Program-made: the position numbers and the translations under genes
Sequence record: NC_048196.1
DNA: 64,000 nucleotides
Direction: 5' to 3' (one strand)
Origin: Escherichia phage vB_EcoM_Schickermooser
The notes under the pieces: generated by a model
Database searches by the model: none
What the model saw: only the letters and a program-made list of their open reading frames with translations
Told to the model about the DNA's origin: nothing
Part shown: in pieces, positions 5,207-16,507 of the stretch
How positions within the stretch are numbered: position 1 is the stretch's first letter
Layout: each line of letters starts with the position of its first letter

Positions 5207-7882
5207 ATGTTTCCAATTCCAATATTTACTATTATGACCAGCACTGGTGTCGTTCCTCTGCCAGCAGGTATTGTTAAAAAAGTAATCACTCTAGATTACC
5301 CAGATAATGCTGGCAATTCTAATAGCAGTTTAGCAATTTTGCTTAATGATGGTAGATTGTTTACTCAAGGCGCAAACCTTTTTGGTGAGATTGCAGATGG
5401 AACTCGTAGTGCACGATTCAATAATTTCCACTTAGCTTCTACTGTAGTAGCGGATGTGTTTACCGCAGATCGTTGTTTTGTTATTAAAACTAACAGTGGG
5501 GGATGGCAATATTCAGGATTGACAGCAGGGTTGGTAGGATCTATAGCAGCAGGTGGTACGGATGCATGTGTAACCACTTGGACCAGCTTTCCATCTGTAA
5601 TAACAGGGACTATCTCTTTAGCCAATCTTAAAGAGGTTAAGGGAGGATATAACAATACTCTCTGGTTAATGAATAGTGGTGTTCTTTATGGATCGGGTCA
5701 AAACACAGTAGGCAGTTTAGGTGCAAGCACTACTAACGAAGTTTCTACTCCTCGTCAGATAACAAGCGCAGCAGTTGCTTTTGATGCAGGTTACAACCAA
5801 TGTTCTTATGTCAACAATGTGGGAACCTTGCGTGTTTGTGGAGCCAGTAAAGGTTTAGCAGGTAATAATAACACAACAACAGCTTTTGTCAATGCCAAGA
5901 TATCCGCTACTGAAACAGTGTATGTCAAAGATTACATCAATACAGTTTCCCAGACAATAGTTGTAGGAGATACCTCCGGTGGCACGGGTACAGTAAACTA
6001 CTTATATGTTAGATCTAATACAGAAACAACCTACACTAAACTGGATACCTTTGCAGCAGGTTTCTCAACATGGAAGTTTCCACCAAGCCGCCACTCTTTT
6101 TTCGTTGGGATTAATAATTCCTTGTGGGCTATTGGTAAGAACTACACTGCAAACTTAGGTTTGGGGTATGATTCTGCGAGCGGAGATCCACTCCAAGTGG
6201 GAAAACCAGTTAAACCTGAAGGAGTGGGTTCTTGGGATATAAACAAGCTCACAAGCGTTCATACGCTGAATATGGATGTTACTAACCAATTAGGTTATCA
6301 AGGAACCTTTTTCGTTTATAATGGAGATATGTATTATTCCGGTATTTGGAAAGATGGGAAAGCCTCGTATCTGTTCAATAGTGGTCTAAACTATAATAAA
6401 TTCACACCAATAGCAAGCTCCGTGATTACGGGCGATATTCTGGCAACTGGCTTAACTACAGATTCTTTAGGAATTTGTATTGTAGGTGGAACTAAACAGT
6501 TGACACATTCTGTTAGCCCAGAAGGAGGTAAACTTTTCAATATTAAATACACTTCTTCTGCCCCTGCAAACATGACAATATCATCTACTGGTTTAATGAC
6601 TTTCCATGCAGAAGGTGGTTTTGATGCAGGTATGACAGCCTTAAACGCTGAAGGAACAACTTTATCAGATACCTCTGGAGGATATGCTTCAACATTGAGC
6701 GTTTACACCCCTAGCTTATCTGCGATGGATGTAGGAACAACACAAACAATGGTAGCAGAAATAACGCCAACAGGAGCAGCAAGCTTACCTGGTATGGTTG
6801 TTGAGTATTTCTCTAATGACCCTACGGTAGCAACAGTTGACCCCGTTACAGGCGTTATTACAGCGGTTGCTGATGGGGATTGTCGTATCGGTTGTAGAGC
6901 AACTTATCAAGGTGTGGTAACTGCCGAAGATAGTTCTTATCTCGCAGTGAATGCTGTGGTGATTGTGATGGACTATGATTTGACGCAAGAAACTATTCCA
7001 ACGGATGTAAAGGTCAATAGGAGTAACCGTTATGCCAGGGCTTCTGGAGATATCCTTGTACCTACAGAGAGTTCTGCTCCCGTAGCACCTTTAGAATATG
7101 TTGGTACAACTCCACAAGGTAGACGTGTTGTAGCAGCCAACCGTACACATATCTTTATCAACAATAACTTGACAACAGCTTCCCCGTGGTTGAAGACGAA
7201 CTTGACAGTCACAGCATCAACAATCAACTCTCCGGTTGGAACTACGGCTAACACTTACAAGTTAACACCTTCTACAACTTCAGGACAACATATTTTATCA
7301 GCAGTGAATACAGCCTCTGATATTACAGCAGGTAAGCACTGGGCGGCATCCGTATTCTTGAAGACAGACGGGATCACTAAAGTTAAACTCAAATTGACTT
7401 CAGGAGATGAGATTAACGAAGGGACTTATGATCTTGTAGCTGGAACATTTACAGGTGCAGATGCAAACATAATCGATATGGGGAATGGTTGGTATCGTGT
7501 AATTCTACACAAAGTGACAGTTGCCAAACAAGCATCTATAACCTATGAGATTATAGCTTTGAATGCAAGTGGATCAGACACTTTCGCAGGAGATGGTACG
7601 GCAGGTCTTATTGCTTGGGTTCCACAGCTTGAGATGGGTGATATGACAAATCCAGTTTGGGCGGGGACACCATTTGTTTGTTCTTATGCACGAGACACTA
7701 CCAGTGCTGTTACCTTCACTATTCCTAAGAATGGACATACTGGCGTGGACATTTACCACACCGATGGTACTGTGCAACGAGAGGTCTTCACTGGTACAGC
7801 TACAACTTGGATGTTGACGTTCACCGCCGCAAGTGCGGATTGGGGATCGAAGTTCATTACAGGTTTGAAATATTACGACTAA
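5207..7882 (+). CDS. tail fibre protein with Ig-like (Big_2-type) domain (891 aa)
   Basis: Ser/Thr/Gly/Asn-rich fibre-like composition; segment AEITPTGAASLPGMVVEYFSNDPTVATVDPVTGVITAVADGDCRIGCRATYQGVVTAEDSSYLAVNAVV resembles bacterial Ig-like group 2 domains; GGAGGG RBS. Confidence 0.7.
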   Translation: MFPIPIFTIMTSTGVVPLPAGIVKKVITLDYPDNAGNSNSSLAILLNDGRLFTQGANLFGEIADGTRSARFNNFHLASTVVADVFTADRCFVIKTNSGGWQYSGLTAGLVGSIAAGGTDACVTTWTSFPSVITGTISLANLKEVKGGYNNTLWLMNSGVLYGSGQNTVGSLGASTTNEVSTPRQITSAAVAFDAGYNQCSYVNNVGTLRVCGASKGLAGNNNTTTAFVNAKISATETVYVKDYINTVSQTIVVGDTSGGTGTVNYLYVRSNTETTYTKLDTFAAGFSTWKFPPSRHSFFVGINNSLWAIGKNYTANLGLGYDSASGDPLQVGKPVKPEGVGSWDINKLTSVHTLNMDVTNQLGYQGTFFVYNGDMYYSGIWKDGKASYLFNSGLNYNKFTPIASSVITGDILATGLTTDSLGICIVGGTKQLTHSVSPEGGKLFNIKYTSSAPANMTISSTGLMTFHAEGGFDAGMTALNAEGTTLSDTSGGYASTLSVYTPSLSAMDVGTTQTMVAEITPTGAASLPGMVVEYFSNDPTVATVDPVTGVITAVADGDCRIGCRATYQGVVTAEDSSYLAVNAVVIVMDYDLTQETIPTDVKVNRSNRYARASGDILVPTESSAPVAPLEYVGTTPQGRRVVAANRTHIFINNNLTTASPWLKTNLTVTASTINSPVGTTANTYKLTPSTTSGQHILSAVNTASDITAGKHWAASVFLKTDGITKVKLKLTSGDEINEGTYDLVAGTFTGADANIIDMGNGWYRVILHKVTVAKQASITYEIIALNASGSDTFAGDGTAGLIAWVPQLEMGDMTNPVWAGTPFVCSYARDTTSAVTFTIPKNGHTGVDIYHTDGTVQREVFTGTATTWMLTFTAASADWGSKFITGLKYYD

Positions 7883-7883
7883 T

Positions 7884-7918
7884 AAAAAAGGGAACCCGCA
7901 AAGGTTCCCTTTTCTTTT
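7884..7918. terminator. bidirectional rho-independent terminator (A-run, GGGAACC-CGCAAA-GGTTCCC, T-run)
   Basis: Lies between convergent genes 5207..7882 (+) and 7946..8833 (-); hairpin flanked by A-run and T-run so it can terminate both strands. Confidence 0.8.
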
Positions 7919-7945: not shown

Positions 7946-8833
7946 TCAGAATGGAATATCATCGTCGAAGTCCATTGGAGGTTCTTCTTGATTACTTGGA
8001 GTTGGTTCTGGTTGTGGTTCAGGTTTCTTAACTTCTTTCTTCTCTTCTTTCTTAGGCTGTTCTGCGGAACCACGAATGGCAGCAGCAACTTTATCAGACA
8101 GAGCCAGAACTTTACGAGCAGAATCAATCAGATCTTCTACAGAGACAGTCTTGATGGTATGGTCTTTACAAGCATTGAGAATAGCGTGACCAACAGATGC
8201 CCCAAGATCATAATCATTAATATCAACGCCACGAGATTCAGCAATTTCAGATTTCAGCGTGACAGTTGCAGATTGAACAACCCCAGCGATATCGAAAGCA
8301 TCGCCTTTAACACCATTACGAATCAGTTCCAGTGCACCATTTACTGCGTGACCAGTTTCCAGACCTACAGTATCACGTTTTTTATAGGACTGCTTAGGAG
8401 CAGCATCGTTGGAACCTTTATTGCCAGAAGATTTGTTAGACTTCTGAACACCATCGGTAGACAATACTGTAATACGAGATTTTTTAGTATTGTAGTAAGT
8501 TTTACCGCCTTTATTATCAACGCGATCAATATCAATACTTACTTCTACACCTTTTTCAATAGTGATCCAATTATCACCTTCTTTGACTTGCAGGTTTTCA
8601 TAACCTTCTTTCAGTTCAATGTCACCAAGAGAAATCCAAACACCTTTCTCATCTGGTTTAGCACCTTTCTCTTTCAGAACAAGAGAAGCTCGGTGAGTTG
8701 AAACAATCGTTTTTCCTTCCCAATGGAAGGTTTTAGGTTCAGCGAATTTATCCAGTTTAACGTAGTCTACGATACCAGTTGCATAAGTTACGGTTTTGCC
8801 TTTACGATCAGTTTCAGTATTAATTACGGACAT
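7946..8833 (-). CDS. ssb: single-stranded DNA-binding protein-like (295 aa) with E. coli SSB-type acidic C-terminal tail
   Basis: C-terminus ...PSNQEEPPMDFDDDIPF matches the E. coli SSB tip (PMDFDDDIPF) as I recall it; sits next to replication genes. N-terminal domain not recognisably a canonical OB fold by eye. Confidence 0.65.
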   Translation of the reverse strand: MSVINTETDRKGKTVTYATGIVDYVKLDKFAEPKTFHWEGKTIVSTHRASLVLKEKGAKPDEKGVWISLGDIELKEGYENLQVKEGDNWITIEKGVEVSIDIDRVDNKGGKTYYNTKKSRITVLSTDGVQKSNKSSGNKGSNDAAPKQSYKKRDTVGLETGHAVNGALELIRNGVKGDAFDIAGVVQSATVTLKSEIAESRGVDINDYDLGASVGHAILNACKDHTIKTVSVEDLIDSARKVLALSDKVAAAIRGSAEQPKKEEKKEVKKPEPQPEPTPSNQEEPPMDFDDDIPF

Positions 8834-8849
8834 TATTATCTCCTCTACA

Positions 8850-9242
8850 TTACATTAATTTTGCACAGAAAGAGCGGAGTCTTTCCATATCATCTTGCTC
8901 TAACAGGTATTTACCTTTACCTATTCCAACCCCAATTTCACCATTAGGAAAATGAACTATTTGCACTGGGAAACCTCCGAGTTTAATTGTGGCAGCTTTG
9001 CCTTCTTCGTCTATAACGTTTCGGATTGTATCTTGCAGTGAAATGAATTCTTTGTTTGTAACAGTGGTTTCAATTATTTCAGATGTTTCAACACGAGCAG
9101 TTAGCTTCTTGTTTCCACCTTGAATAACCAAAATTTGAAAATAAAAAGAGTTGTCAAGACCTACAACATTTTTCTCAACTAGTGTCAAACTGGTATAGTT
9201 TCCATAAACAGTTTCAACAGCTATCTTAGAACGTTCAGTCAT
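8850..9242 (-). CDS. hypothetical protein (130 aa)
   Basis: ORF in the minus-strand gene train, tightly spaced with neighbours. Confidence 0.5.
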   Translation of the reverse strand: MTERSKIAVETVYGNYTSLTLVEKNVVGLDNSFYFQILVIQGGNKKLTARVETSEIIETTVTNKEFISLQDTIRNVIDEEGKAATIKLGGFPVQIVHFPNGEIGVGIGKGKYLLEQDDMERLRSFCAKLM

Positions 9243-9287
9243 TGAATGCTATCCTATCATAAAATGTTTAATATTGTCAAGCTTTAA

Positions 9288-9884
9288 TTACCAAGGAATA
9301 TCATCTTCTTCTTCCGATTTGGTATCTACTTGAGGTGGACGTGGAACCTTAACCTCTTTAACAAAGCGAAGATATGGGAAACGCGTAGCGATTTTAATAA
9401 CATGTTTGGCATCTTCTCTAACATCTTTGTGCAAGAAGCAGATCCCTGTTTCCAAAGTTGTTTCAAAATCTTTAGAGTAATAACAATCCTTTCCATCAAA
9501 TGCAGCCTGGCAGATGGACAGATCAAACTCATTCAGAAAGGTTGTCATTACATTTGGGTCCATAATCATAAGGTTGCAAAGCTGACCATCACGTTCAAAT
9601 TCAAAAACGTGTTTAAGACCAGTAACACCCTCGTAGTTATCAGAAGCATCTTTGTTTCCTAGTTTACGAATATTAGTTCCCATCAAAGCAGATGCAATCA
9701 AGTCTTGTATTTGCTCTTCTGATCGATGTGCAGGAAGAGACGTGTAAAAATCCAGATCACGTCCAGCAATATCAAGAATACGCCAATCACGAACAGCACC
9801 GCCAGCCAAGACAGAATTAGGATCAGCGATCTTTAATACGGTAAGAATTTCTTTGGCAATATTGATTTGTTTTGATTTAGTCAT
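9288..9884 (-). CDS. hypothetical protein (198 aa), possible pol-beta-type nucleotidyltransferase motif, acidic C-terminal DDIPW tail
   Basis: Motif LAGGAVRDWRILDIAGRDLDFY resembles the GGxVRD...DxD head of CCA/poly(A) nucleotidyltransferases; C-terminus EEEDDIPW is SSB-tail-like. Confidence 0.45.
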   Translation of the reverse strand: MTKSKQINIAKEILTVLKIADPNSVLAGGAVRDWRILDIAGRDLDFYTSLPAHRSEEQIQDLIASALMGTNIRKLGNKDASDNYEGVTGLKHVFEFERDGQLCNLMIMDPNVMTTFLNEFDLSICQAAFDGKDCYYSKDFETTLETGICFLHKDVREDAKHVIKIATRFPYLRFVKEVKVPRPPQVDTKSEEEDDIPW

Positions 9885-10512: not shown

Positions 10513-13110
10513 CTAGTGACAGGACGCCCAGGAGTTACCCACATCATATCCGGCAGTAAGCTGAACGTTAAGATTGTAAAATTCTCCAGCCTTAGTAACA
10601 GCTAAAGCAGCAAGTTCACCTGCCCGACTATAGGCTGTAAACCATCCACCTTTGGGAGATTCATGAATGTTAGCCCAAATTTGCCCTGTCTCTTTTTCCT
10701 TATTATGCTTCCATTCTTCGACTTTAGCAAGGCATTCTTTATCAATTTTCTTTTGTTCTTCAGGATCGTCTACTTTTTTCCAACCTAATGATTCGGGTGA
10801 AAACCATTTAAATTCTACAAGGTTACGAGAAACTTCAAGCTGGGCTTCATCGTGATATGCAATCATTTGTTGTACGAAGTCTTTATTCTTCCAGTCATCT
10901 TTAAAGAAGTCAACACTTAGTCCTTCTTCTTCGATCATATCATCATAAATAACCATTGCACGTTTAGCACAGATAACCCCACCGCTTTGGAACAGAGAGT
11001 TAAGAATCGCATGAGCAGAACGAGTAGGAACCTTACGACCGTCAATACCCAAAACATATTGTTTACCAGTCTTAACCCAGAAATCGTTTAAACGTTCTTT
11101 AAGACGCGCCAATGGGAATGCAGCTTCCCAGAAAGCATCGAACACCAATTGACCTGTAAACTTATCGCTACCAATTGTTTTAGCAACCTTGTCGGCTTGT
11201 GCACCATAGGTAATACCATACTTAACAGATTTAGCAGGACTACGTTCAAATTTACGTCCAATAGTTTCAGTGATACGTTTTGCCATCATTGTGTGAACAT
11301 CATTAGGTTTCTCTAACAACAGAGCGTTACAATATTCGTGTGGCTCCGGCTCGTATCGCCAACAGTAGTGTGATTCAATTTTTGCTTCCAAAGAGTCGAA
11401 GTCGTAGCCAATCTGGAAGTATTTAGGAACCTCTACACCAAACAAGTTACGCATCTCCCATCCAAACAAAGATGTGACACGAGGAATATTAGCTACAGAC
11501 CTATGCTTCATACGAGAGGTTGCAGCATCACATGTAGCGGCTGGTGTAGGAATACGCCCATCCGCCCTTACTGCGGCTAAGAAACCTTTATCATATTCTT
11601 GGTCTTCTTCATCTTCTTCCCAATCAGCACCACCACCTAAAATAGAGTTCCTACGATGCTTATACGTTAAGTATTCTACAATCTGTGTAGCATAAGGGAA
11701 TTTCTCACCCAAAGCTTGCAGGTTAGGACAGATTTCTTTTTCCTGACCTTTGGTAAAACATGGGTTAGTCAATACTTTAAGACCGCGACCTTTACCTTTT
11801 GCTATACGCTCTTGAATCTTCCTTTCCAAGGTTTCCGGTGTGCACTCCAGATGATCACAACGGTCCTGACAAAAATTAGAAGATAAAGTTTGCTCAACGT
11901 AAGCTCGAATACCTTTCTGAAGTTCTTCCTCGCTCTTTTTAATCTTGGTGCCAGATTTAAGAGTCAAATCTTTATCTTTATATTCCGATGGTACCCAACC
12001 TAATCCTACAAGCCAGTTTTTAATATGGGTTGTATCGTTTAATGTTGCAGGGATGTGAGGATCACATAAAGGCTCATCTGCTGCAACTGGCAGTTTCCAC
12101 TCTTTCCCCAACATAACTAACCACCAATCTCCATCCCTCTCTTCCAAATGACCATCATGTTTCTTAGCAAAATTGATCATATGGTTAGTTGGTTCTAAGT
12201 TCTTTTTAATTTGCAACTTAGGTGGAATAAAAGCTTTAAGATAACCTTTTGTTGCTGGTTTAGGTGGCAAAATAGGCTCAACGAGTAAACGAAGACGCTC
12301 CATTTCTGCATCCAAAAAAGCAAGGTTCTCTTCTGCTTGCTTCATGTTAAAAGCAAACCCACGGTGTTCCTGGCGCGTGATAATGTCTGCTACACGTTGT
12401 TCAAGTTCAAATGGACCTTCCCATTTATCATAATCACCCCATTCTTCCATGAGGTAATTATATACACTTGTGTTGGCTTTGTTATCATAGATACAGTAAT
12501 AAAGCATATCCGCAGCAAAAGTCTTAAATCGATCTTCTTCTGGAATCTCTTTACGGAAATCTATTTTTACATCACCGCCTGCTTTTCGAGAAAGTGCTGC
12601 CAAGCTATGTCCTGATTTGCCCTCAATCTTTCGATCTGGGTTTAACACTTTACTCAAAATCAAAGAGTCAATAAGTTTTACCTTATTTTTGCCCCACGTG
12701 TTATATTTAACACTGTAATCTAATCCATAAAACAGTTTTGTAGCCAACCAGTCATAGTTGATACCGTTGTGTGCCACAGCCATTTCAACCAAATATTCAG
12801 GCTTGTCTTTAAAATAACCTTCATGATTAATAAAGTCTGGGAAATCTTTTAGTTGAAAATGTGTGTAATCTTGCGCCACATATTCTTTAAGAACATACGT
12901 GTATTTACCATCTGATTCTTCATAAGGACGCCCGTCAAAAATATACTTAGGGCCATCGTGGAAAGCTACTATCTCTCCTGTTTCATGGTTCTCTAAGACA
13001 ATACAGTGCATTTGAAATGTGTCTTTGAGACGATAAGGACTAGCTAAATAATCGATAGTGTCATTATTCAACAATCCGTTTGCTTCAATATCCCATGTAA
13101 ACTTACTCAC
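10513..13110 (-). CDS. DNA polymerase, family A (865 aa)
   Basis: N-terminal 3'-5' exonuclease Exo I motif DIEANGL; polymerase motif B KSVKYGITYGA and motif C AYHDEAQLEV. Confidence 0.9.
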   Translation of the reverse strand: MSKFTWDIEANGLLNNDTIDYLASPYRLKDTFQMHCIVLENHETGEIVAFHDGPKYIFDGRPYEESDGKYTYVLKEYVAQDYTHFQLKDFPDFINHEGYFKDKPEYLVEMAVAHNGINYDWLATKLFYGLDYSVKYNTWGKNKVKLIDSLILSKVLNPDRKIEGKSGHSLAALSRKAGGDVKIDFRKEIPEEDRFKTFAADMLYYCIYDNKANTSVYNYLMEEWGDYDKWEGPFELEQRVADIITRQEHRGFAFNMKQAEENLAFLDAEMERLRLLVEPILPPKPATKGYLKAFIPPKLQIKKNLEPTNHMINFAKKHDGHLEERDGDWWLVMLGKEWKLPVAADEPLCDPHIPATLNDTTHIKNWLVGLGWVPSEYKDKDLTLKSGTKIKKSEEELQKGIRAYVEQTLSSNFCQDRCDHLECTPETLERKIQERIAKGKGRGLKVLTNPCFTKGQEKEICPNLQALGEKFPYATQIVEYLTYKHRRNSILGGGADWEEDEEDQEYDKGFLAAVRADGRIPTPAATCDAATSRMKHRSVANIPRVTSLFGWEMRNLFGVEVPKYFQIGYDFDSLEAKIESHYCWRYEPEPHEYCNALLLEKPNDVHTMMAKRITETIGRKFERSPAKSVKYGITYGAQADKVAKTIGSDKFTGQLVFDAFWEAAFPLARLKERLNDFWVKTGKQYVLGIDGRKVPTRSAHAILNSLFQSGGVICAKRAMVIYDDMIEEEGLSVDFFKDDWKNKDFVQQMIAYHDEAQLEVSRNLVEFKWFSPESLGWKKVDDPEEQKKIDKECLAKVEEWKHNKEKETGQIWANIHESPKGGWFTAYSRAGELAALAVTKAGEFYNLNVQLTAGYDVGNSWASCH

Positions 13111-13904
13111 TATTCCTCCTTTCTAATGTTCTCCAGAACCCACTGAAGTTCTTTTAAACTTAAACTTCTTACTCCCGCAGTTTTACTAGCTTCGGCTTTA
13201 AGTAACGGGTAAGCCTCAATGATACGCGTTTTAAGATCAGAAGTCAAGGCTTTTAAAAAATAGGTAGATGCTTCAGATAAAGAATCTTCTTCTGATAACA
13301 CTTTACCTGCACTTGCTCCCGCTCTCCTAACGGCTATGTCGTAGTCTTTACTGTTGCCTAATACGAATAGTCGATTTTCTCCTAAAACAACGGGAGAACG
13401 CTTCTCGTTGCGTTTAATCCATACCTGGAATACACAAGGAACATCCCAAGGTTCTCCATGAAGAATAAAAGATCCTTTTGGACATTCTTCTTCGTAAAGA
13501 AGATGCATGTGGGGATTTAGTTTGTGTGCAAAAAAGATTTTTTGAAATGTGCGAGGCAAGATAAAACAAATACCACCTTCGTTATCCAACATTTCAGCAC
13601 AATGGTTAAAGAACTTAATGGCAAGACTAGCATTTTTTCCAAACGGAGGATTACCGACAAAAGCAGTTACACTACCAACAGACTCAACAGATTGAGCTAA
13701 AAAATCTGCCTCAATACAATCTTCAAACTTAGGGTCAATATCAAAAGAAGTTATGTTTTTAAAACAAGAAGAGAAAGCTCCTTCTCCCGCAGATGGTTCT
13801 ACGTAGTTAGCTTCCTCTCCAAAAATTTCTTTGATCTTATCACATAAGAACCCCGCATAAGCGGGGTTAGTGTAATATTGATCAAGTGTGTTCAACTTGC
13901 TCAA
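13110..13904 (-). CDS. DNA methyltransferase (amino-methyltransferase, NPPF motif; 264 aa)
   Basis: Motif I-like EPSAGEGAF and catalytic motif IV VGNPPFGK; start overlaps polymerase stop. Confidence 0.7.
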   Translation of the reverse strand: MSKLNTLDQYYTNPAYAGFLCDKIKEIFGEEANYVEPSAGEGAFSSCFKNITSFDIDPKFEDCIEADFLAQSVESVGSVTAFVGNPPFGKNASLAIKFFNHCAEMLDNEGGICFILPRTFQKIFFAHKLNPHMHLLYEEECPKGSFILHGEPWDVPCVFQVWIKRNEKRSPVVLGENRLFVLGNSKDYDIAVRRAGASAGKVLSEEDSLSEASTYFLKALTSDLKTRIIEAYPLLKAEASKTAGVRSLSLKELQWVLENIRKEE

Positions 13905-14423: not shown

Positions 14424-14439
14424 AAGGGCCGAAGCCCTT
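14424..14439 (-). terminator. intergenic hairpin AAGGGC-CGAA-GCCCTT
   Basis: 6-bp stem at the 3' end of the primase-helicase gene on the minus strand; short U-tract. Confidence 0.35.
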
Positions 14440-16216
14440 AATAGTTGCTATCCGTAGGCAAATTAGCAGGATTGTTGAAATACTGCTCTTTGTCATGCAG
14501 AGTTGCAGTTCTAATGTCATAGTAAAACTGCCCTGCCGGACCCGTTTCCGAGAACTCACGGTTTTTTAGGATAAAGCAATGAGTCGTATTGCGTTCTACA
14601 GGGTCTTCAGCGGCTTTATCTCGTTCCAAAGCCAAGGTAATACCAGCACCTTTAGCCAAGAAACTACTACCCATTGCATCGTCCTCTGTTAAGTGTTCAT
14701 TGCCACCATTAGCTGACTTCTTAACGTGTGAGATGACGATAATAGTTATAGCATACTCTTTCATGATTCGCTTCAACCATGTTGCTAACTCTTCCTGGGC
14801 TTGAACATCCATACCAGAAAGCAAATCAGAATAAGGGTCGATAACAAGAATTGTTACTCCAAAATAGATGATCATCTCCAAAACTTTTTCTTTGATAGAC
14901 TCCACATCTGCTCCACGATCATCACACACATAAAAACGTGGTGATCCATCTTCTCTTTCGTAAAAATCTAGGATTTTTTCTTTATTCTCTTCCAAGATTT
15001 GAAATTTCTCTTCCGGTGTTTTCCTGTGTAGAGGAATATGCAAGAAAGAGGACAACAGGTTACGAGAATATTTCTTATAAGTTGCTTCCAAGGACAGAAT
15101 ACCTAGGGTATGTTCTGGGTGTGCAACGATAATATGTTTGGTGATCTCGTTCACCATCAAAGTTTTACCGATACTGGTCTTTGCCAGGATGACTGTAATC
15201 TCTTCCTCTACTAAACCACCACCCAGCATATTTGCAGCAACACGCATAAAAGGAGGCAAGGTAATCATCTTGGATTCCAAGCATTCTAATGCAGCTTCAT
15301 ACAAGACATTAGAAGCATAAACACCTGCTGGGGTGTATAGACGAGCACTCCAAAAAGCTTTTACGAAATCTTTTGCACGACCTTCTTCCAGATACTGATT
15401 GGCATCCTTAAGATCCATCTGCATACGGTAGACTTTGTTACGAGGCAGCACCTTAACAATATTTTCAAATGCCTCATTACCTGCTTTGTCATTATCCATG
15501 CAAACAATAATCTTCTTAAATTTTTCAAAGAAAGGATATTGTGCCTGAACTTGTTTATACATACTGGTTTCACCAGTTGTGCCACTAACTACTGCTGGAA
15601 GTTCATATTTGTTGTCCAAGTTTTCAGACAGCATTTGATAAGCTGCCAGAGCATCGTGTTCACCACCTGTAATTACCACAGTATGAGAACGGTCTGCAAA
15701 ACGAATTTGTCCAAAAAGATCTACATCTTTACCTACTTGACCAATAGGTTTACTGAAATCTTTAGGATGAATACGACGCTTAAAACCAACCAATTCTTTA
15801 CCGATAGTAGTCGGATATAAACAACTTTCTACTACCATCTGATCCCCTTCCTGACGGTATTCATAACGAACACCATAGAAAGATGAAACTTTTTCTTTAA
15901 TGCCTCGATAACCACGTGGGTTGGTTGATGTTTCTTGAACAATTTTACGATGAATCTGTTTATTAAATTCCGAACCCACAATCTCCTCCTCTTCTTCTAA
16001 AACTTCACCATTTTCTCGTAACCATTCTACGCTAGGAATAGTGTATTCACACGCAAAGCACTTAGCACCTTTATGCTCTCCATTAGAATCTAATCCATAA
16101 ACCATCAGGTTATTACGAGAGCGATCCTTGCCATTTTTCATGCAGCGCGGACAACCTGTATGCCCTTCCTTGCTAAGATCAACATCAAATCCATATTTAG
16201 TTATAATGTGCGACAC
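14438..16216 (-). CDS. bifunctional primase-helicase (T7 gp4-like; 592 aa)
   Basis: N-terminal zinc ribbon CPRCMKNG...CFACEY; C-terminal DnaB-like helicase Walker A ILAKTSIGKT and Walker B-like VLVIDPYSDL. Confidence 0.8.
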   Translation of the reverse strand: MSHIITKYGFDVDLSKEGHTGCPRCMKNGKDRSRNNLMVYGLDSNGEHKGAKCFACEYTIPSVEWLRENGEVLEEEEEIVGSEFNKQIHRKIVQETSTNPRGYRGIKEKVSSFYGVRYEYRQEGDQMVVESCLYPTTIGKELVGFKRRIHPKDFSKPIGQVGKDVDLFGQIRFADRSHTVVITGGEHDALAAYQMLSENLDNKYELPAVVSGTTGETSMYKQVQAQYPFFEKFKKIIVCMDNDKAGNEAFENIVKVLPRNKVYRMQMDLKDANQYLEEGRAKDFVKAFWSARLYTPAGVYASNVLYEAALECLESKMITLPPFMRVAANMLGGGLVEEEITVILAKTSIGKTLMVNEITKHIIVAHPEHTLGILSLEATYKKYSRNLLSSFLHIPLHRKTPEEKFQILEENKEKILDFYEREDGSPRFYVCDDRGADVESIKEKVLEMIIYFGVTILVIDPYSDLLSGMDVQAQEELATWLKRIMKEYAITIIVISHVKKSANGGNEHLTEDDAMGSSFLAKGAGITLALERDKAAEDPVERNTTHCFILKNREFSETGPAGQFYYDIRTATLHDKEQYFNNPANLPTDSNY

Positions 16217-16228
16217 TTTGTTCTCCTG

Positions 16229-16507
16229 TTAAAATGGTTCGTTAGTCTCCATCATATATTCTGCTTCTAGTTCTTCCATATGCTTTCTAAATTGGAAAGC
16301 AATTTCTGCTACAGTTACATTTAAATCTTTTTCAAAAACTTCTGTAGAGCCTTCATAAAAACGAATACCGTCAATTAAAAGCCCTCCGTGGTAATCCCAA
16401 TCACTTTCACGAGAAAGCGGGTTAGGCTCTTCATAATAGTAATCCACCTCCACGACTAAAGCTTTCCCGTTACGAGTGGTGTATTCAAAATCAAAAGTGT
16501 TAATCAT
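16229..16507 (-). CDS. hypothetical protein (92 aa)
   Basis: ORF in gene train; start abuts downstream gene. Confidence 0.5.
   Translation of the reverse strand: MINTFDFEYTTRNGKALVVEVDYYYEEPNPLSRESDWDYHGGLLIDGIRFYEGSTEVFEKDLNVTVAEIAFQFRKHMEELEAEYMMETNEPF

Follow-up and report, generated by a model that had tools for sequence, protein, structure and literature searches.

The locus

The stretch analysed here (the window) comprises 64,000 nucleotides of the genome of Escherichia phage vB_EcoM_Schickermooser (NC_048196.1), and two of its minus-strand genes, each encoding a protein with an acidic C-terminal tail of the kind found on bacterial SSB (the protein that binds single-stranded DNA), are the subject of this report. 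The first, an open reading frame (ORF) with an ATG start codon at 7946..8833, encodes a 295-amino-acid (aa) putative SSB analogue made up of a predicted OB domain and a helical domain, followed by a disordered linker that ends in the E. coli SSB tip, copied exactly. The second, at 9288..9884, encodes a 198-aa protein, a minimal nucleotidyltransferase (NTase) of the class II CCA-adding/poly(A)-polymerase (PAP) head type with an acidic DDIPW tail.

Both genes belong to a leftward (minus-strand) replication operon with the order primase/helicase (14438-16216), family A DNA polymerase (10513-13110), three small ORFs, 198-aa ORF, 130-aa ORF and 295-aa ORF. The 295-aa gene, which carries a GAGGAG Shine-Dalgarno sequence 8 nt upstream of its ATG, is the final gene of the operon. 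It is followed by a GC-rich hairpin with A and T runs at its flanks (7886..7913, no strand assigned), which faces a convergent tail-fibre-like gene and appears terminator-like in both directions. Between positions 7800 and 10200, the DNA shares 97-98% nucleotide identity with phAPEC8-type E. coli myoviruses (Phapecoctavirus, Stephanstirmvirinae). These nearest relatives bear out the E. coli-like host anticipated in the initial annotation of the region, which was made from the letters alone and in which the coordinates and both terminal peptides were exact.

Identity and conservation of the C-terminal tip

More than a dozen bacterial enzymes of replication, repair and restart, PriA among them, are led to single-stranded DNA (ssDNA) by the C-terminal tip of SSB, which acts as their hub. 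In the SSB partners exonuclease I, RecQ, RecO, chi and DnaG, a hydrophobic pocket takes the terminal Phe of the tip, and basic residues of the pocket contact its Asp residues and C-terminal carboxyl (PMC3632105).

Residues 284-295 of the 295-aa protein (EPPMDFDDDIPF; 7949..7984, minus strand) are the same as the E. coli tip: C-terminal alignment with K-12 SSB (NC_000913.3, b4059) showed the final 12 residues of both proteins to be identical, as the initial annotation had claimed. The C-terminus reads ...PEPTPSNQEEPPMDFDDDIPF (also written ...PTPSNQEEPPMDFDDDIPF) and that of K-12 SSB ...APAAPSNEPPMDFDDDIPF, with PSN just upstream of the 12 shared residues. In a phmmer search against all PDB sequences, the tip was also the sole stretch of the 295-aa protein to be aligned, namely to E. 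coli SSB (1eqq, 4mz9). The 12 tip codons plus stop differ from those of E. coli ssb at 7 of 39 nucleotides, every one of them a synonymous third position; the match is therefore held at the protein level and does not stem from recent K-12-type ssb DNA, so that a recent capture of host ssb DNA could be ruled out. Acidic ends finishing in IP[FW] occur in two of the 627 ORFs of the window (stop-to-stop, at least 40 aa), the 295-aa and the 198-aa ORF, and in two of the 2422 ORFs (at least 30 aa) of the complete related genome LR597654.1, which are the same two genes. The likelihood that a 12-residue identity arose by chance is negligible.

Both tails are kept in homologues, and the linkers ahead of them vary. 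For the 295-aa protein, a tip motif ending in PF was found in all 120 listed homologue clusters, with IPF in 98, DDDIPF in 70, DFDDDIPF in 56 and the full PPMDFDDDIPF in 27; the upstream E-P-P-M/V-D-F is also common. The bodies of these homologues diverge to about 30% identity and their linkers are not conserved. A tip conserved on diverged bodies is what one would expect if its binding pockets were those of bacterial SSB, and the features of the SSB C-terminal motif are all present in the window protein: the exact acidic run, and IPF with a free carboxyl on a flexible segment.

Family and predicted structure of the 295-aa protein

The 295-aa protein was assigned to phrog_4477 (E 2.7e-97), annotated as 'unknown function'; GenBank labels for the family are mostly 'hypothetical', with 'SSB' in some records, and the literature searched held nothing relevant on it. 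A search of 5.8 billion proteins returned 137 homologues of 275-425 aa, and tblastn located the family in 336 phage records, including Stephanstirmvirinae, rV5-like Vequintavirinae and myoviruses of Cronobacter, Klebsiella, Salmonella, Pectobacterium and Serratia. The protein has no Pfam domain and no match to the Pfam SSB family at E<=1.

The structure was modelled with AlphaFold2 as a monomer, using 77 homologues (mean pLDDT, predicted local distance difference test, 79.6). In the model, residues 1-130 (8444..8833, minus strand) form an all-beta domain of predicted OB fold with a pLDDT of 80-90, a putative ssDNA-binding module. Residues 133-149 are disordered and lead to a four-helix domain with two GHA..NA motifs (residues 150-256; 8066..8386, minus strand), whose four long helices at residues 156-253 have a pLDDT of about 93; a role of this domain in oligomerisation or cooperativity is a guess. 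The C-terminal 40 residues are disordered and include a K/E/P-rich linker (residues 257-283; 7985..8065, minus strand; pLDDT 42-68) that varies in length and sequence among homologues.

Structure prediction had been proposed in the initial annotation as a check for an OB fold, and its outcome is favourable: the nearest solved neighbours of the predicted N-terminal fold include bacterial and mitochondrial SSBs, Stn1 and RPA32. At the level of sequence, no relationship was found when the N-domain profile was compared by hhalign with 31 canonical SSB OB domains (probability 0.55%). In searches of PDB sequences with the family profile, SSBs were matched via the tail only, and NCBIfam PRK09010 and PDB SSBs match residues 254-295 or 269-295 only. 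Remote sequence homology of the N-domain to SSB was ruled out on these grounds, and homology of the core to T7 gp2.5 or T4 gp32 was likewise not found. Judged against PF00436, the protein thus has a predicted OB fold, the disordered linker and the DDDIPF tip without a sequence match of the OB domain. The description 'SSB-like' given to it initially stands for the tip and the predicted fold; it does not extend to a sequence relationship with the SSB family beyond the tail.

As modelled, the 295-aa protein is an SSB architecture (OB core, flexible linker, acidic tip) without canonical SSB sequence. With E. coli SSB (PF00436; 1eqq, 4mz9, 1kaw) it shares the OB core, predicted here, the disordered linker and the 12-residue tip, and presumably the role of coating ssDNA and serving as a recruitment hub. 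It differs in that its OB domain has no detectable sequence homology, in its extra four-helix domain, and in its linker, which is K/E/P-rich here and G/Q/P-rich in E. coli. Like the 295-aa protein, T7 gp2.5 combines an OB fold with a tail and is non-homologous to bacterial SSB. A canonical SSB elsewhere in the genome was also looked for; neither tblastn with the E. coli protein as query nor the annotation of the 150-kb related genome LR597654.1 revealed one. This absence, the position at the end of the operon and the evolution of the C-terminus argue for an SSB-like job of the 295-aa protein.

The 198-aa nucleotidyltransferase and its tail

The 198-aa protein, named nucleotidyltransferase in PHROGs, was noted initially for a possible NTase motif and a DDIPW end, and both observations held up. 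Its catalytic motif GGAVRDW...DLD (residues 28-45; 9750..9803, minus strand) is invariant in 12 of 12 aligned homologues, within the invariant stretch LAGGAVRDW...DLDFY, and its predicted fold is that of a pol-beta-type NTase with a CCA/PAP head. The match to the head domain PF01743 scores 14.9 bits and stays below the cut-off of 23, and five of the 12 homologues match this family, with a best E-value of 0.0011. Like the heads of class II CCA enzymes and poly(A) polymerase I (PF01743; 1miv, 3aql), the protein has the pol-beta fold and the GGxVRD and DxD motifs. Unlike them, it does not reach the Pfam cut-off, bears a C-terminal peptide resembling the SSB tip, and at 198 aa lacks the neck, body and tail domains that hold the tRNA/RNA substrate (about 400 aa). 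Its size and fold resemble those of stand-alone heads, such as the head-only 2la3 and the MenT-type NTase toxin 8an4.

The C-terminus (...VDTKSEEEDDIPW) ends in EEEDDIPW, with the DDIPW tail at residues 194-198 (9291..9305, minus strand) in a segment with a pLDDT below 50 (residues 186-198). It corresponds in part to the SSB C-terminal motif, being located in a disordered segment and having Trp in place of Phe. DDIPW is present in 9 of 10 homologues at 58-95% identity, the remaining one ending in DDSFPW, and the linker ahead of it varies in both length and sequence. Two homologues at 31-33% identity are without the tail, one of which sits elsewhere in its own genome, and so is the phi92-type orthologue (35% identity).

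When 1.84 billion representatives were searched with a profile, a large family emerged, with 1045 matches that are mostly 175-220 aa long. Among the best 150 of these NTase-family representatives, six end in [ILV]P[FWY], for instance NFPDDIPW, SSNDIPW and YPDDGIPF, and they belong to separate sub-lineages; close neighbours in the family end in WDEEF, SDDDF or YPPL. In LR597654.1, three of the 2422 ORFs end in [ILV]P[FWY], two of which are the SSB-analogue and NTase genes. Since such ends lie far above this background and recur in separate sub-lineages, the tail is taken as a recurrent, selected feature of the NTase family and not as an accident. The literature searched contained no report of an SSB-tip-like tail on CCA/PAP-head or related families.

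Two other assignments were considered for the enzyme. Kinship to Gad2 (anti-Gabija) was dropped, as the faint Pfam matches suggesting it were not reproduced by hmmscan at E<=10, and a function in CCA maturation of the phage tRNAs is unlikely, given that 10 of 10 tRNA genes already encode CCA.

An extension beyond the tip

The tail peptides named in this analysis are PPMDFDDDIPF, EEEDDIPW and PPMDFDDDIPFAPIGLQYGRNFLHCF. The window gene stops right after IPF (stop codon 7946-7948). In 17 of the 120 homologue clusters (14%), the protein runs on past IPF by [AS]P[ILV]GLQY and 7-10 further residues, 14-17 in total (e.g. APIGLQYGRNFLHCF). The extension was seen in the related loci L001 (4884-4933), L003, L008, L009, L010, L061 and L011-L059; its carriers include the L001 protein, which is 99% identical to that of the window, and the isolated, viable phage Mt1B1_P17, whose annotated CDS encodes 310 aa.

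With a degenerate DNA pattern encoding D-x-P-F-x-P-x-G-L-Q-Y, 49 loci were retrieved from IMG/VR, and 10 matches only from GTDB with one genome per species, so that the peptide is rare among bacterial genomes. About 30 of the 49 encode canonical phage SSBs that share 53-85% identity with the OB domain of E. coli (e.g. ending in DDDIPFAPIGLQYPALLMCM), and mostly lie on temperate-looking contigs of 40-56 kb, with an endonuclease downstream in a minority. The APxGLQY codons differ at third positions between loci, which argues for selection on the extension peptide, and because the APIGLQY module occurs on both the 295-aa family and canonical phage SSBs, the two C-termini appear to be treated as interchangeable by evolution. 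Phage SSBs thus have in the extension an alternative C-terminus that is widespread; the APIGLQY peptide is not mentioned in the literature searched.

In all four extended loci of the family that were examined, the start of a homing-endonuclease-like gene coincides with or lies close to the extension's stop codon: L001 4905-5399 (the same site as window position ~7946), L008 3468-3896, L009 3414-3761 and L010 3674-4216. The stop of the extended ORF is overlapped or directly adjoined by the start of this gene, an insertion that is missing from the window. The encoded protein has a zinc-finger N-domain (CxxC..KPLSEFYKHK..DG..NKCKEC) and, in three of the four loci, an HNH C-domain. The conserved DNA that encodes the tip looks like the homing region of the endonuclease, and in the phAPEC8 family co-conversion across this DNA probably introduced the extension along with the endonuclease. 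A group I intron entered by read-through was rejected as the source of the extension, since no Rfam intron was found and a ribozyme core would not fit. An origin of the extension as a by-product of the reading frame of the endonuclease was rejected as well, as the start position of the endonuclease varies, the third positions of APxGLQY vary, and most extended canonical SSBs are without an endonuclease.

The L010 endonuclease, located downstream of a 387-aa family member, itself ends in ...VIPEIKIPF, and hence in IPF, which may be a coincidence.

Other genes and features of the neighbourhood

The gene between the two tailed genes (8850..9242, minus strand) encodes a 130-aa protein of phrog_16560, annotated as of unknown function, for which no Pfam or NCBIfam match was found. 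Its position is conserved, with a 130-135-aa gene directly upstream of the SSB analogue also in L001, L008, L009 and VEcB. Ahead of the 130-aa and SSB-analogue genes lies a sigma-70-like promoter match, TTGACA-18-TAGGAT with TG (9251..9280, minus strand; 10 of 12 matches); sigma-70-like matches in the region do not exceed the number in shuffled sequences, so that this match is a weak one.

In L009, the slot corresponding to window positions 9288-9884 is occupied by a 270-aa SIR2-family protein (L009 1270-2082), which replaces the NTase and is without an SSB-like tail; variable cargo may be housed in this slot, which lies two genes upstream of the SSB analogue. Between the polymerase and primase/helicase genes, a 264-aa ORF (13110-13904, minus strand) has the look of a methyltransferase with an NPPF motif, and a related record labels it 'DarB-like anti-restriction'. 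A 92-aa protein encoded immediately upstream of the primase/helicase gene (16229-16507, minus strand) has the C-terminus ...EAEYMMETNEPF; all 10 of its full-length homologues end in NE[S/P/Y]F, with an invariant terminal Phe. This end may be a third acidic, Phe-terminated tail of the replication module, and is not a copy of the SSB tip.

In the related genome LR597654.1, a full dTDP-rhamnose pathway (homologues of rmlA, B, C and D; L004 39310-42588) lies beside the ribonucleotide reductase genes, and a TerC-like membrane protein is also encoded. Three INPHARED records of 'Campylobacter phages' (MG065645, MG065658, MG065662) carry homologues like those of E. coli Justusliebigvirus and rV5-like phages, with 62% and 35.5% protein identity to the proteins of the window, the same figures as for those E. 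coli phages; the host labels of these records may be unreliable.

Discussion

We favour, with moderate confidence, the reading that the 295-aa protein is a phage SSB analogue which docks into the tip-binding pockets of host proteins, and probably also of phage proteins, and that the NTase uses a variant of the same peptide. From the tip identity, the conservation of both tails, the predicted OB and NTase folds, the genomic context and the absence of another SSB, we infer binding of ssDNA, docking into tip pockets and the identity of the partners. The 295-aa protein would be the phage's own ssDNA-binding protein, on a scaffold that has no sequence relationship with bacterial SSB, with a flexible linker ending in the gammaproteobacterial SSB tip. 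It would coat phage ssDNA at forks and recombination intermediates, and its tip would then dock in the pockets that read host SSB, which are hydrophobic and ringed by basic residues. Docking would recruit enzymes of host genome maintenance to the phage DNA, and probably also those proteins of the phage replisome that read the tip code; the protein could also compete with host SSB for partners. The 198-aa protein, an active-looking minimal NTase, would have acquired the docking-peptide variant DDIPW and thereby be directed to the same class of pocket, and not to ssDNA itself.

Some evidence weighs against this reading. The extension would bury the terminal Phe and carboxyl that known partner pockets take (PMC3632105), and the viability of Mt1B1_P17 together with the 14% of extended clusters speaks against an indispensable free IPF end, which weakens the case for docking as an essential function. 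In the extended phages, the free tip is either dispensable, or the extension is removed, or the protein is redirected to another client. A phage-encoded client such as those of T7 gp2.5 or of the HK620 SSB is equally compatible with the data.

In the main rival reading, the tails have clients of phage origin only, and the tip is read by the phage's polymerase, primase/helicase or a recombination protein. As an exclusive account, this is rather unlikely in our estimate; as a partial one it is compatible with the favoured reading. Identity with the host tip would have been inherited by exchange of ssb 3' ends between phages and hosts and not kept for host capture, and the tail of the NTase would bring it to the phage replisome. 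T7 offers a precedent, its replication module likewise containing two proteins with similar acidic, aromatic-terminated tails: gp2.5 (SSB) and gp4 (helicase-primase) dock on one partner, both binding T7 DNA polymerase via their Phe-terminated ends. In phage HK620, the SSB's final six residues (NDYPPF), which resemble the SSB tip, are required to recruit the phage-encoded Sak4 (PMC5928155); the HK620 protein is distantly homologous to canonical SSB and its tip has diverged, whereas the 295-aa protein has a non-canonical scaffold and an exact tip. The phage encodes a nearly complete replication and recombination set, and C-terminal modules do move between canonical phage ssb genes and the 295-aa family, as seen in the APIGLQY extension and the homing endonuclease at its junction. 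The WDEEF, SDDDF and YPPL tails of NTase relatives also look as if matched to different cognate systems. A private code could, however, drift freely, as it has in T7 and T4, but the tip and the residues upstream of DDDIPF stay host-like even where the bodies retain about 30% identity.

An extended proposal, which we consider improbable, takes tip mimicry as an address label for phage effector enzymes, with NTases delivered by their tails onto the replisome or into the SSB-binding pockets of host proteins that act in genome maintenance or defence. It would cover the other NTase tails (DDGIPF, NDIPW, WDEEF) as well; the delivered enzymes might nucleotidylate, or otherwise act on, the bound protein or nearby 3' ends, and the SSB analogue with its optional APIGLQY extension might form a second, switchable layer of the docking code.

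The 295-aa protein could also be a decoy, not a working SSB, that soaks up host SSB partners (nucleases, restart proteins, SSB-monitoring defence sensors), the tail of the NTase being similarly inhibitory. The exact host tip, a scaffold without sequence relationship to SSB and a helical domain without assigned function would fit this idea. We hold it to be very unlikely, as it would leave the genome with no SSB at all, which a phage of 150 kb that brings its own replisome would not usually lack; the gene moreover closes the replication operon and has a strong ribosome-binding site, a peptide decoy would need neither an OB fold nor a conserved body of 250 residues, and alleles bearing the extension would lose decoy activity and yet persist.

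Least probable of all is that DDIPW is no docking peptide and resembles the SSB tail by coincidence or for structural reasons, on an enzyme for tRNA 3'-end (CCA) repair or of poly(A) type: the GenBank label 'tRNA nucleotidyl transferase / poly(A) polymerase', the 10 tRNA genes and the tRNA methyltransferase of the phage group, and the lack of such a tail in the phi92-type orthologue and in most of the about 1000 family representatives point that way, but the tail is retained behind a variable linker in a low-confidence segment, [ILV]P[FWY] ends have appeared in at least four separate sub-lineages, the tRNA-holding body and tail domains are missing, and the phage tRNAs have their CCA encoded.

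Host-type tips on the SSBs of phages and plasmids are well known, and so is the T7 pair of replication proteins sharing a tail code. New here are an unaltered host tip carried by an OB-plus-helical scaffold that is uncharacterised, non-homologous and conserved in a large group of phages, the tip-like tail on a nucleotidyltransferase, recurring in that enzyme family, and the extension past the tip. The extension poses a separate question, namely how phage SSBs modulate the tip hub. The scaffold spans therapeutic-type myoviruses of E. coli, Klebsiella, Salmonella and Cronobacter (Stephanstirmvirinae, Vequintavirinae). If docking is true, it would assign a function to a widespread 'hypothetical protein', provide a natural non-SSB enzyme with an SSB-tip-like tail, and offer a simple handle on the host functions that these phages depend on or disable.

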